Below are positions 24,268 through 24,466 of a DNA stretch of 64,000 nucleotides, one piece after another. The position numbers and the translations under genes were made by a program. Under the pieces are notes generated by a model. That model was not told the origin of the DNA and did not search any database. It worked only from the letters and a program-made list of their open reading frames with translations. The DNA lies in assembly GCF_036507355.1 (NCBI RefSeq), contig NZ_AP027877.1. One strand, 5' to 3'. The DNA is from Escherichia coli (GTDB lineage Bacteria; Pseudomonadota; Gammaproteobacteria; Enterobacterales; Enterobacteriaceae). Within the stretch, counting starts at the first letter, position 1; each line of letters opens with the position of its first letter.

Positions 24268-24466
24268 TCTAAATAATTCAAGTTGCAGGAAGGCGGCAAG
24301 CGAGTGACAAATTCGTCAGGAACGAATTTGCCCAGCCGCAGGCTGGCCTTCGGTGAGAGACATGGATGTCTCTCATTAATCCCCAGGAGCTTACATAAGT
24401 AAGTGACTGGGGTGAGCGAACGCAGGTACAGCACATGCAACTTGAAGTATGACGAGTATAACTGGC
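24268..24466. repeat. ERIC (enterobacterial repetitive intergenic consensus) element, enlarged form with internal insert
   Basis: 24397-24418 aagtaagtgactggggtgagcg is identical to the ERIC2 primer; 24375-24396 matches the ERIC1R complement; outer arms ttcaagttgcag / ctgcaacttgaa. Confidence 0.7.

Follow-up and report, generated by a model that had tools for sequence, protein, structure and literature searches.

The stretch of DNA analyzed here, referred to as the window, comprises 64,000 nt of an Escherichia coli genome (contig NZ_AP027877.1). Within it, panC, encoding pantoate--beta-alanine ligase, is a 283-aa ORF on the plus strand (23407-24258) that carries the panC annotation in all matching E. 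coli records and ends with a TAA stop codon at 24256-24258. Shortly downstream lies an ERIC/IRU element of 194 bp at 24265-24458, made up of about 123 bp of ERIC and a 71-nt insert, with the plus strand corresponding to the sense of the ERIC2 primer. It is followed at 24463-24485, on the plus strand, by a terminator-like hairpin and then ATTATTCATT, a feature present in all haplotypes and located directly after the panC stop in K-12. Its terminator-like character is judged from consensus matching only, which gave two hits in 800 nt against 0.7 expected. The ERIC is intergenic, being placed between the panC stop codon and the predicted terminator hairpin. Two genes on the minus strand lie beyond the hairpin, a small ORF of 71 aa (24536-24751) and rpnC (yadD; 24820-25728), encoding a 302-aa nuclease of the Transposase_31/YhgA-like family (Pfam PF04754, E 2.4e-87). 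The first-pass annotation had proposed an enlarged ERIC at 24268-24466 between panC and a small ORF resembling the tail of an Rpn protein; both the enlarged form and the placement were borne out, and the proposed bounds came close to those given here. We assign a probability of about 90% to the reading that 24265-24458 is a single copy of the ERIC/IRU MITE in its long, insert-bearing form, and that it is independent of the duplication represented by the small ORF.

ERICs have been reviewed as MITEs of 127 bp having terminal inverted repeats (TIRs), a target duplication, and TA at both termini (PMC3184786, PMC2229807). A primer-site search of the window revealed the ERIC2 sequence (AAGTAAGTGACTGGGGTGAGCG) at 24397-24418 on the plus strand, with 22 of 22 bases matching as had been noted at first pass, and no other match at three or fewer mismatches. 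The complement of ERIC1R had also been recorded, and a site is indeed present on the plus strand at 24375-24396 and is unique in the window, but only 20 of its 22 bases agree. The site reads ATTAATCCCC... and not GTGAATCCCC..., with both mismatches due to the junction between insert and ERIC core, at the end that would pair with the 3' end of the primer. Because the insert junction spoils this end of the site, the panC copy may prime poorly from ERIC1R in ERIC-PCR, and it would illustrate that an internal insert is able to disable one of the ERIC-PCR priming sites.

The arms of the outer palindrome, which had been described as about 150 bp apart, were recovered in an inverted-repeat search at 24262-24287 and 24436-24461. 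They are 26 nt long, 81% complementary, and separated by 148 nt. The right arm, however, is aTGCAACTTGAA, having 11 of the 12 bases of the perfect complement, and not cTGCAACTTGAA as first given. Standard ERICs of 125-126 bp found at other loci, including those at cusF-cusC and pgk-fbaA, align with both halves of the element at 94-97% identity and skip the intervening 71 nt. These halves are the left arm at 24265-24306 (TACTCTAAATAATTCAAGTTGCAGGAAGGCGGCAAGCGAGTG) and the core with the right arm at 24378-24458, the latter containing the central hairpin with its arms at 24381-24394 and 24399-24412. The similarity to ERICs thus takes in the arms as well as the centre, which disposes of the concern that the arms might be unrelated to ERIC and only the centre match by chance. 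Overall, the panC ERIC is 94-99% identical to ERIC copies over thousands of genomes. ERIC-like places number 47,878 in 5,425 E. coli genomes, with a median of 9 per genome. A chance or convergent palindrome is excluded by this level of identity together with the expectation of zero matches to either primer site in shuffled sequences.

The 194-bp element is predicted to fold with -88.3 kcal/mol (z -8.4) on the plus strand and -81.9 kcal/mol (z -8.2) on the minus strand; as both fold about equally well, folding does not tell which strand is functional. Rfam V_AS5 (RF02818) matches the element over its full length, yet at a sub-threshold 30.2 bits compared to the gathering score of 96. In its palindromic core with both primer sites, terminal arms, TA ends and TA duplication, its intergenic location just after a gene, and its membership in a dispersed family with several copies per genome and empty and filled sites among strains, the panC copy agrees with ERIC/IRU/RU-1 as originally described (Sharples & Lloyd 1990, Hulton et al. 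1991). It departs from the standard form in measuring 194 bp rather than about 127 bp, owing to the nested module of 71 nt, and in the spoiled ERIC1R site. Searches of the window for primer sites, modules, and tRNA genes showed this ERIC and its module to be the only ones, and tRNA genes to be absent. ORFs of 58, 52, and 39 aa that run across the ERIC were judged by eye to be spurious here, as they are not kept between module variants.

The bounds of the element were obtained by comparison with the orthologous spacers of other E. coli, where both empty and filled sites were encountered. The empty site, TAATACT-TA-ACTGGCGC, is found in K-12, clone D i14, and ST38, and the filled site reads TAATACT-TA-[TACTC...GAGTA]-TA-ACTGGCGC, so that the element itself runs from TACTC to GAGTA. 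The insertion point is a TA dinucleotide 5 nt past the panC stop, upstream of the terminator-like hairpin. TA flanks the element on both sides in O157:H7 and MB22; in the window the right copy is retained at 24459-24460, and the left copy at 24263-24264 has decayed to TT. The site is empty in K-12 as well as in B2 and D strains, and O157:H7 is among those in which it is filled. Of 5,426 complete E. coli genomes, about 408 contain the junction between ERIC and panC. An assembly artefact was excluded by an independent NCBI assembly (L017) that is identical over 631 bp spanning the end of panC, the ERIC, the small ORF, and the end of rpnC.

We know of no transposase for ERICs, and mobilization of the panC copy would presumably have occurred in trans by some such enzyme. 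There was probably one ancestral insertion at panC, which later spread between lineages by homologous recombination. The right arm varies among carriers (GGTACAG, GGCGCAG, or GACGCAG, with a 7-bp duplication in O157), and this variety fits one old insertion; less probably, ERICs inserted repeatedly at the same TA. The panB-panD region is highly polymorphic, and presence or absence of the panC ERIC provides a clean marker there.

The small ORF beside the element corresponds to a gene already published as rpnC-Ss. It duplicates the C-terminal (RpnS) domain of RpnC as a free-standing unit and lies outside the ERIC. Its product is 57% identical to residues 235-301 of RpnC (E 4e-22) and is labeled in RefSeq either as an RpnC/YadD family protein or as hypothetical. 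Like the rpnC-Ss and ypaA type of free-standing RpnS genes (PMC10400941), it lies downstream of rpnC, repeats the C-terminal antitoxin domain of RpnC, and has a variable repeat of four amino acids, KGFQ, such that the allele of assembly L015 is 12 bp longer (75 aa versus 71 aa). The two copies of the diverged direct repeat, copy 1 at 24522-24622 and copy 2 at 24806-24900, are spaced 278-284 bp apart and are 82-90% identical.

The first-pass annotation had located the ERIC at the boundary of a partial yadD duplication and suggested that repeat and duplication arrived or rearranged together, with the ERIC marking the boundary. The two features are indeed close neighbors, no more than about 65 nt apart, and the window shares both with assemblies L015-L017, but the comparison of strains makes this proposal extremely improbable. 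All four combinations of presence and absence occur. K-12 has neither feature; the ERIC is found without the small ORF in O157:H7, 2013C-3264, D72, MB22, PapRG-04-4, and Escherichia sp. E1V33; the small ORF is found without the ERIC in clone D i14, ST38, ST80, and O8:H8; and the window and L015-L017 have both. Nor does the ERIC sit at the duplication junction. The ERIC ends at 24458 and the repeat unit starts at about 24522, and the 62 nt between them, including the hairpin at 24463-24485, are conserved in every haplotype.

The genome counts agree with this separation, as the small-ORF segment occurs in 1,573 of the 5,426 complete E. coli genomes versus 408 with the ERIC-panC junction. A joint query with ERIC and small ORF produced no match above 90.1% in these 5,426 genomes, and the top-ranked genomes, which have only the ERIC, align the small-ORF part of the query to the rpnC gene itself. 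Escherichia sp. E1V33 matches the window nearly base for base on both sides and keeps the ERIC haplotype, but is missing exactly 278 bp and has a hybrid rpnC tail. To judge from its sequence, this loss is a fusion of the two diverged repeats, recombination between copies 1 and 2 giving the single-copy state with the exact 278-bp difference seen here. Since E1V33 retains the ERIC without the duplication, the ERIC outlasted gain or loss of the duplication, and the identity of only 82% between repeat copies argues that the duplication is old. Gain of rpnC-Ss and its loss by fusion have been published, with no ERIC involvement mentioned (Zhong et al. 2023, PMC10400941), and the single-copy state arises here in the same way. 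The panC ERIC thus arrived independently of the rpnC-Ss duplication, which is only its neighbor, and a tempting but wrong tie between the repeat and an antitoxin-like gene is hereby corrected.

The 71-nt insert, which we term the type A module, occupies 24307-24377 of the plus strand, with the junction ambiguous by 1 nt (equally 24308-24378). It sits in the left half of the ERIC between GAGTG(A) and (A)ATCCCC, holds a perfect 10-bp inverted repeat, and is predicted to form four hairpins on the plus strand: H1 (24308-24330; loop CAGGA), H2 (24332-24346; loop GCA), H3 (24347-24353), and H4 (24354-24375; apex CATGGATG). Rfam contains no family that covers the insert, either in this region of the window or in 17 related loci, and its leads on ERIC and insert (V_AS5, Ysr49, CssrA, and RsmV) were all sub-threshold and do not amount to memberships. 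The structure was scored by per-sequence folding statistics, as MAFFT misaligns the middle hairpins, which vary in length. Compensatory changes in H1 and H4 amounted to 39 two-sided cells compared to 11.6 in shuffles, none of 500 shuffles reaching as high, and 92.6% of H1 and H4 cells were paired versus 27-42% when the partners were slid.

Of 5,426 E. coli genomes, only 615 carry the type A insert, usually as a single copy, and across these genomes it occupies at least three loci; a type B module is found in 649 of the same set. The type A insert takes the same position in the ERICs of the panC-rpnC and rpiA-argP spacers and in the ERIC next to ybfA. Related modules are inserted at three different internal ERIC sites, each time behind GA and ahead of A, in varied combinations but a single orientation. 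The type C modules of ERICs share the plan of four hairpins. We consider it very unlikely that the 194-bp form is ancestral and the 127-bp form its deletion derivative, which would make the 71 nt original ERIC sequence. Internal deletions of ERICs do occur, as in strain GN25, where the long ERIC on the ybfA side lacks the stretch between two 9-nt repeats (CAGTCGCAG), and palindrome-induced deletion in ERICs has been reported. Deletion from a long ancestor, however, is at odds with the varied placement of related modules in one orientation, with the rarity of module-bearing ERICs when each genome has a median of 9 ERIC places, and with the existence of the module, free of any surrounding ERIC, in Methylophaga, Shewanella, Lysobacteraceae, contigs of a viral collection, and many metagenome contigs. 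The module would rather have entered some ERIC copy earlier, by a separate insertion with a preference for sites after GA and before A. As the same module is at the same position in the ERICs of all three E. coli loci, the long form would then have spread to further loci.

Interrupted ERICs were reportedly described by Cromie, Collins and Leach and also by Sharp in 1997, and by Wilson and Sharp in 2006, as elements in which some 70 bp are inserted at one particular internal position while the whole stays well folded. The panC copy likewise has an insert of this size at a defined internal position, folds well despite the interruption, and appears to differ from those ERICs in nothing essential. 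Earlier papers also treat insertions and deletions in ERICs (Sharp & Leach 1996, Cromie et al. 1997, Sharp 1997). The 194-bp ERIC at panC is an ordinary element of an already described kind, the long form having been known since 1997. As a textbook copy of that form, with orthologues in O157:H7 and hundreds of sequenced genomes, it is of low significance in itself. Greater interest attaches to the insert, which belongs to a small structured element whose occurrence extends well past ERICs.

The location of the ERIC between stop codon and terminator suggests that it would be transcribed as part of the panBC 3' UTR. ERICs are known to be co-transcribed with flanking genes and to change the stability of upstream mRNA by way of RNase E, depending on their orientation (PMC3184786, PMC2229807, PMC10969869). 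The transcribed panC copy would form a very stable branched stem-loop and could change mRNA decay, as has been reported for Yersinia ERICs. According to De Gregorio et al. 2005, as relayed by PMC2229807 and PMC10969869, those ERICs lie toward the 3' end of transcription units, as the panC copy would, and their effect depends on orientation and on access of ribosomes or RNase E to a TIR; the panC copy differs in bearing the additional module. On balance, the effect of the panC ERIC would most likely be small or neutral.

A more specific function would follow if the ERIC or its insert were an RNA that binds CsrA/RsmA, with the panBC 3' UTR recruiting or titrating CsrA. We regard this as unlikely, although parts of the structure recommend it. 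CsrA sites are paired hairpin loops bearing GGA (PMC4333381), and the insert has two such loops, CAGGA in H1 and the H4 apex CAUGGAUG, which is near a CANGGANG-type site. All of 22 diverse copies have GGA in the H1 loop, although the pattern used to retrieve them left this loop free, and GGA is present in the H4 loop of 73 of 79 metagenome copies retrieved by a pattern for H1 only; the loops remain constant on covarying stems. Like the CsrB/Rsm sponge RNAs and TwoAYGGAY (RF01731), the module has GGA or AUGGAU loops, two per unit and sometimes in tandem arrays, and many copies have, at the foot of H4, positions able to form tandem G-A pairs. The GGA strand is also the sense strand of panC in the window, but is antisense to both flanking genes at the other two of the three E. 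coli loci, such that the orientation relative to transcription is inconsistent. Rfam gave no Csr/Rsm or TwoAYGGAY match, its weak lead to RsmV of the Csr/Rsm clan (16.3 bits, E 0.13) lying far under the gathering score of 100. Furthermore, the sister modules of type C have the four-hairpin plan without GGA loops. Most of the middle loops are of the GNA triloop kind (GCA 45, GAA 29, GUA 16). Such triloops also stabilize DNA hairpins, and the structure of the module may therefore act at the DNA level.

We tentatively propose, at less than even odds, that the ERIC insert belongs to a widespread and so far uncatalogued family of insertion modules of 65-95 nt with four hairpins, having a T-loop-like target and one trans-acting partner. 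The left end of such a module would read CAAAT(T/C)CG-loop-CG(A/G)ATTTG, then would come a pair of variable G+C hairpins whose loops are mostly GNA, and finally a right hairpin of the form GAG-stem-CA(N)GGA(Y)G-stem. Modules would enter DNA in one orientation, behind GA and ahead of A. The preferred target looks like the tRNA T-loop, GGTTCGA^ATCCC, which the ERIC site GAGTGA^ATCCCC appears to mimic. Copies would reside in decaying partial tRNA-Ser copies next to intact tRNA-Ser genes, inside other palindromic repeats, in tandem, and at ATGA stop/start junctions, where they would sometimes be read in frame as an N-terminal extension, MTNSSGTNLD.... The GGA loops, invariant above stems that covary, would suggest a single partner acting in trans, which may be a mobilizing enzyme or CsrA. 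If truly undescribed, the family would represent a small mobile or recruited structured unit with conserved GGA loops in diverse bacteria, and would make both the nature of ERIC interruptions and the movement of tiny elements open to testing.

Outside of ERICs, the module was found in other bacteria, within T-loop-like sequence beside tRNA-Ser genes, at ATGA gene junctions in phage-like contigs of the viral collection, and beside a match to a group II intron. ARAGORN places the intact tRNA-Ser beside, and not around, the module-bearing copies, which excludes the module as a T-loop intron of functional tRNAs; at least one module-bearing partial copy (L072) has no matching 3' strand of the acceptor. 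Pfam identified no integrase or transposase among ten ORFs next to module copies. These were ClpX, CsgG, an epoxide hydrolase, an HTH protein, or without a match, and the module was rejected as generally being the end of an integrase-mobilized tRNA-Ser island. A hammerhead-like motif, CUGAUGAG, in some module flanks was also set aside, as by eye the core does not fit and most copies lack the motif.

Among known small elements, the Rickettsia palindromic elements and other small structured insertion elements (PMC2229807) are likewise small and hairpin-rich and are found in intergenic regions, inside repeats, and in frame within protein genes. The module differs from these in its unrelated sequence, the lack of terminal inverted repeats, the single orientation after GA and before A, and its concentration at T-loop-like sequence by tRNA-Ser. 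With H1 at its left end, H4 near its right end, and insertion in one orientation, preceded by GA in 111 of 120 unique copies and by A in all 120, the module may be compared in architecture with the single-strand hairpin elements derived from IS200/IS605 or resembling REP. Its target motif, however, is loose, and its distances from hairpin to end appear to differ from those of IS608. In a further departure, one group of contigs from the viral collection has a 5-bp repeat, CATCA, at both ends of the module.

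The window carries panB (22601-23395) and panC (23407-24258). A non-coding stretch follows and then, both on the minus strand, an ORF of 71 aa (24536-24751) and rpnC/yadD (24820-25728). The window also has panD. The first-pass annotation had placed an enlarged ERIC element at 24268-24466, between panC and the ORF. The element is real and lies where it was placed, with its limits now set at 24265-24458. The ERIC2 primer sequence gave a single exact match in the 64 kb, at 24397-24418, and the ERIC1R complement, which had also been noted, gave a single match at 24375-24396 with two mismatches; neither was found in shuffled sequences. 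The two outer arms, at 24262-24287 and 24436-24461, each span 26 nt and share 81% complementarity, with 148 nt between them, close to the earlier estimate of about 150 bp. RNA folding of the 200-nt stretch yielded -88.3 kcal/mol for the plus strand (z -8.4) and -81.9 kcal/mol for the minus strand (z -8.2); because the stretch is a palindrome, both strands fold well and the fold offers no choice of strand. Rfam has no family for ERIC. Its one notable match, full-length but below threshold, was to the Vibrio antisense RNA V_AS5 (30.2 bits, gathering score 96), which hints that an ERIC-like repeat of Vibrio underlies the V_AS5 family.

When the 200-nt query was searched against 5,426 complete E. 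coli genomes, it was found in 47,878 places (median 9 per genome). The best place in most genomes was an element of 125-126 bp, in which both halves of the query matched at 94-97% and the middle was skipped. Alignment with uninterrupted ERICs at cusF-cusC (K-12 background) and pgk-fbaA revealed the window copy to be a standard ERIC split by 71 nt (24307-24377, one A ambiguous) between GCGAGTG(A) and (A)ATCCCC, which bears out the internal insert that had been proposed; we term this insert the type A module. Since the insert junction alters bases that pair with the 3' end of ERIC1R, priming by ERIC1R should be poor on that side of the window copy.

The outer limits were set from the orthologous panC-rpnC spacers of K-12, clone D i14, an ST38 strain and O157:H7. 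The site is empty in K-12, clone D i14 (B2) and the ST38 strain (...GCGTAATACT-TA-ACTGGCGC...) and filled in O157:H7 (...TAATACT-TA-TACTCTAAAT...GACGAGTA-TA-ACTGGCGC...), so that the element spans 194 bp, 24265-24458, with a duplicated TA, the left copy of which has decayed to TT in the window. These features agree with published descriptions of ERIC as a MITE that has terminal inverted repeats, duplicates its target and bears TA at each end (PMC3184786, PMC2229807). The copy in O157:H7 WS4202 has a 7-bp tandem duplication, CAAGTTG, in its left arm (~975-990 of that locus), as well as several differences from the window copy in its right arm.

An insert-bearing ERIC is an already known kind of element. 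Deletions and insertions in ERICs were reportedly described in 1996-97 (Sharp & Leach; Cromie, Collins & Leach; Sharp, "Insertions within ERIC sequences"), and Wilson & Sharp are said to have noted in 2006 insertions of ~70 bp at specific internal sites. The type A insert is uncommon in E. coli (615 of 5,426 genomes, nearly always as a single copy) and invariably occupied one and the same position within an ERIC, at no fewer than three loci: panC-rpnC (O157:H7, O55:H7, 2013C-3264, D72, MB22 and PapRG-04-4), beside ybfA (strains 300033 and EC1) and rpiA-argP (E2348/69). The E2348/69 element holds a second, related module (type B) in its right half, and type B occurs in 649 E. coli genomes. In strain GN25 the long ybfA-side ERIC has been shortened: the stretch separating two 9-nt direct repeats (CAGTCGCAG), of which one lies in the insert and the other in the right arm, is missing, and the event is clearly a slipped or palindrome-associated deletion.

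The ERIC was inserted 5 nt past the panC stop codon and just ahead of a hairpin scored as terminator-like (24463-24485), which in K-12 directly follows that stop codon. Because it lies between the two, the element is placed such that it could be part of the panBC 3' UTR; as RNA, it is predicted to separate the panC stop from its terminator by a branched hairpin of high stability. Yersinia ERICs alter the stability of upstream mRNA via RNase E in an orientation-dependent manner (reviewed in PMC2229807, PMC10969869). For panBC mRNA, the likeliest outcome is a small effect or a neutral one.

ERIC is non-autonomous and has no known transposase. The copy at panC probably goes back to a single ancestral insertion at the TA, subsequently spread among E. 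coli lineages through recombination; this fits the observation that the ERICs of carriers differ by a few bases and the 7-bp duplication, and it also fits the deep polymorphism of the panBC region. For a housekeeping region, panB-panC (22601-24258) is unusually polymorphic among the complete E. coli genomes: only 11 of 5,426 are at least 99% identical to the window there, and 4,250 are 90-95% identical. The window rpnC region had no match above ~95% in the complete E. coli genomes. Such divergence suggests that allelic lineages here are deep or that segments around the rpnC defence locus were imported.

By its sequence, the 71-aa ORF is rpnC-Ss, a stand-alone version of the antitoxin domain found at the RpnC C terminus (57% identity to RpnC residues 235-301, E 4e-22). 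Its four-residue repeat is KGFQ, versus KGIE in RpnC, and another carrier has an allele 12 bp longer, encoding 75 aa; it is this strain-variable repeat by which RpnL/RpnS pairing specificity is set (PMC10400941). The first-pass annotation had put the ERIC at the boundary of this partial rpnC duplication and proposed that the two arrived or rearranged together. The repeated unit (24522-24622 versus 24806-24900, 82-90% identical, spacing 278-284) begins ~62 nt past the ERIC end at 24458, and the intervening sequence is kept in all haplotypes. Moreover, all four combinations exist: neither feature in K-12, the ERIC at panC alone in O157:H7 and others, rpnC-Ss alone in clone D i14, ST38, ST80 and O8:H8, and both in the window and three further loci, one of which agrees with the window at every base across 631 bp. 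Junction-specific queries of the complete E. coli genomes found the ERIC at panC in 408 and the small-ORF segment in 1,573. A joint query of ERIC plus small ORF found nothing above 90.1% in these genomes, and in the best-ranked ones, which have the ERIC only, it aligned to the rpnC gene itself. Two Logan short-read contigs with the exact rpnC allele of the window stop ~100 nt past the small ORF, their ends falling around the right end of the ERIC. As the repeat breaks assemblies at this locus, draft genomes are expected to under-report the combination of ERIC and rpnC-Ss.

The species-representative genome of Escherichia sp. E1V33 matches the window nearly base for base in panC, ERIC, spacer and rpnC and lacks exactly 278 bp (versus window 24630-24908). 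The one rpnC tail present resembles copy 1 at its 3' end and copy 2 farther upstream, so that the rpnC body is joined to the 3' end of rpnC-Ss. Given how far the two copies have diverged, the simplest account is that they recombined, deleting the DNA between them, after the lineage had acquired the ERIC. The hybrid is a natural example of fusion, a loss route of rpnSs genes in the published account of rpnC-Ss by Zhong et al. (PMC10400941). Together, the comparative data and that account refute a tie between the ERIC and the duplication. The ERIC as first reported is of low interest, and the nested module is the sole thread that may repay more work.

A pattern of 28 specified bases derived from the insert was searched in one genome per species and matched 32 loci, most of them long ERICs, in Escherichia, Citrobacter, Klebsiella, Kluyvera, Phytobacter and Pseudocitrobacter. 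Eight of the 32 were free of ERIC: three in Methylophaga (an orthologous locus, within another palindromic repeat), one each in Shewanella and a Lysobacteraceae MAG, and three in gammaproteobacterial MAGs, two with tandem copies. The module consists of four hairpins. Across a 22-sequence alignment, H1 and H4 were 92.6% paired, versus 27-42% with the partners slid, and both-side changes numbered 39 cells versus a shuffled figure of 11.6, with none of 500 shuffles reaching 39. A second pattern, the first hairpin alone, matched at least 120 metagenome stretches, with 135 copies extracted among the matches listed; a shorter first-hairpin pattern placed the module in 12 viral-collection contigs. 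The pattern constrained H1 alone, and 70 of 79 metagenome copies among the matches listed fold to four hairpins, and 73 of these 79 listed copies have GGA in the last loop, over 23 different apical stems; middle loops in the listed copies are mostly GNA. No Rfam family covered the module in searches of the window region and related loci, and a limited literature search found no description of it outside ERIC.

It is possible, with low confidence, that the module is an RNA recognised through its GGA loops, with CsrA the obvious candidate. Orientation that varies among the E. coli loci weakens this reading, as do related modules without GGA, including a third type found in ERICs.

Within ERICs, modules occupy three sites, after GCAGGA, GAGTGA and GAGCGA, in one constant orientation and always between GA and A. 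Several ERICs carry two modules at once, at any of the three sites and in the same orientation, and type is not bound to site, an A-like module occupying the right-hand site in Phytobacter. Among the metagenome matches listed, GA precedes the module in 111 of 120 unique copies (TTCGA in 63) and the usual right flank is AATCCC, which places it in the T-loop-like sequence GGTTCGA^ATCCC; the ERIC site GAGTGA^ATCCCC is similar. A tRNA gene lies within 600 nt of 69 of the 135 metagenome copies among the matches listed, and for 55 of those 69 it is a same-strand tRNA-Ser at stereotyped distances. In the three contigs examined closely (L072, 8895-9190; L058, 4560-4850; L068, 1-500), the host of the module is an incomplete tRNA-Ser copy adjoining the intact gene; in our reading, a T-loop insertion would survive only where a second intact tRNA copy is present. 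Lacking terminal inverted repeats, oriented and site-preferring, the module might tentatively belong with the IS200/IS605-REP type of single-strand hairpin elements, but its target motif is loose. No integrase or transposase adjoined the copies examined.

In phage-like contigs of the viral collection and in metagenome contigs, the module lies exactly at ATGA stop/start junctions. Sense copies (L176, L179, L185, L142) read as an in-frame N-terminal extension, MTNSSGTNLD..., of ORFs of 163-689 aa; in the first three of these contigs, the downstream gene shares its frame with the ATG within the CATGGA(C/T)G loop. Antisense copies (L178, L181-L183, L187) lie between stop and start, flanked on both sides by CATCA. 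Tandem arrays in metagenome contigs have spacings of ~88 to 250 nt, often near 170-195, and one tandem pair (L048, 828-1110) has a group II intron D1-D4 match (54.3 bits, above the gathering score) ~15 nt upstream of it.
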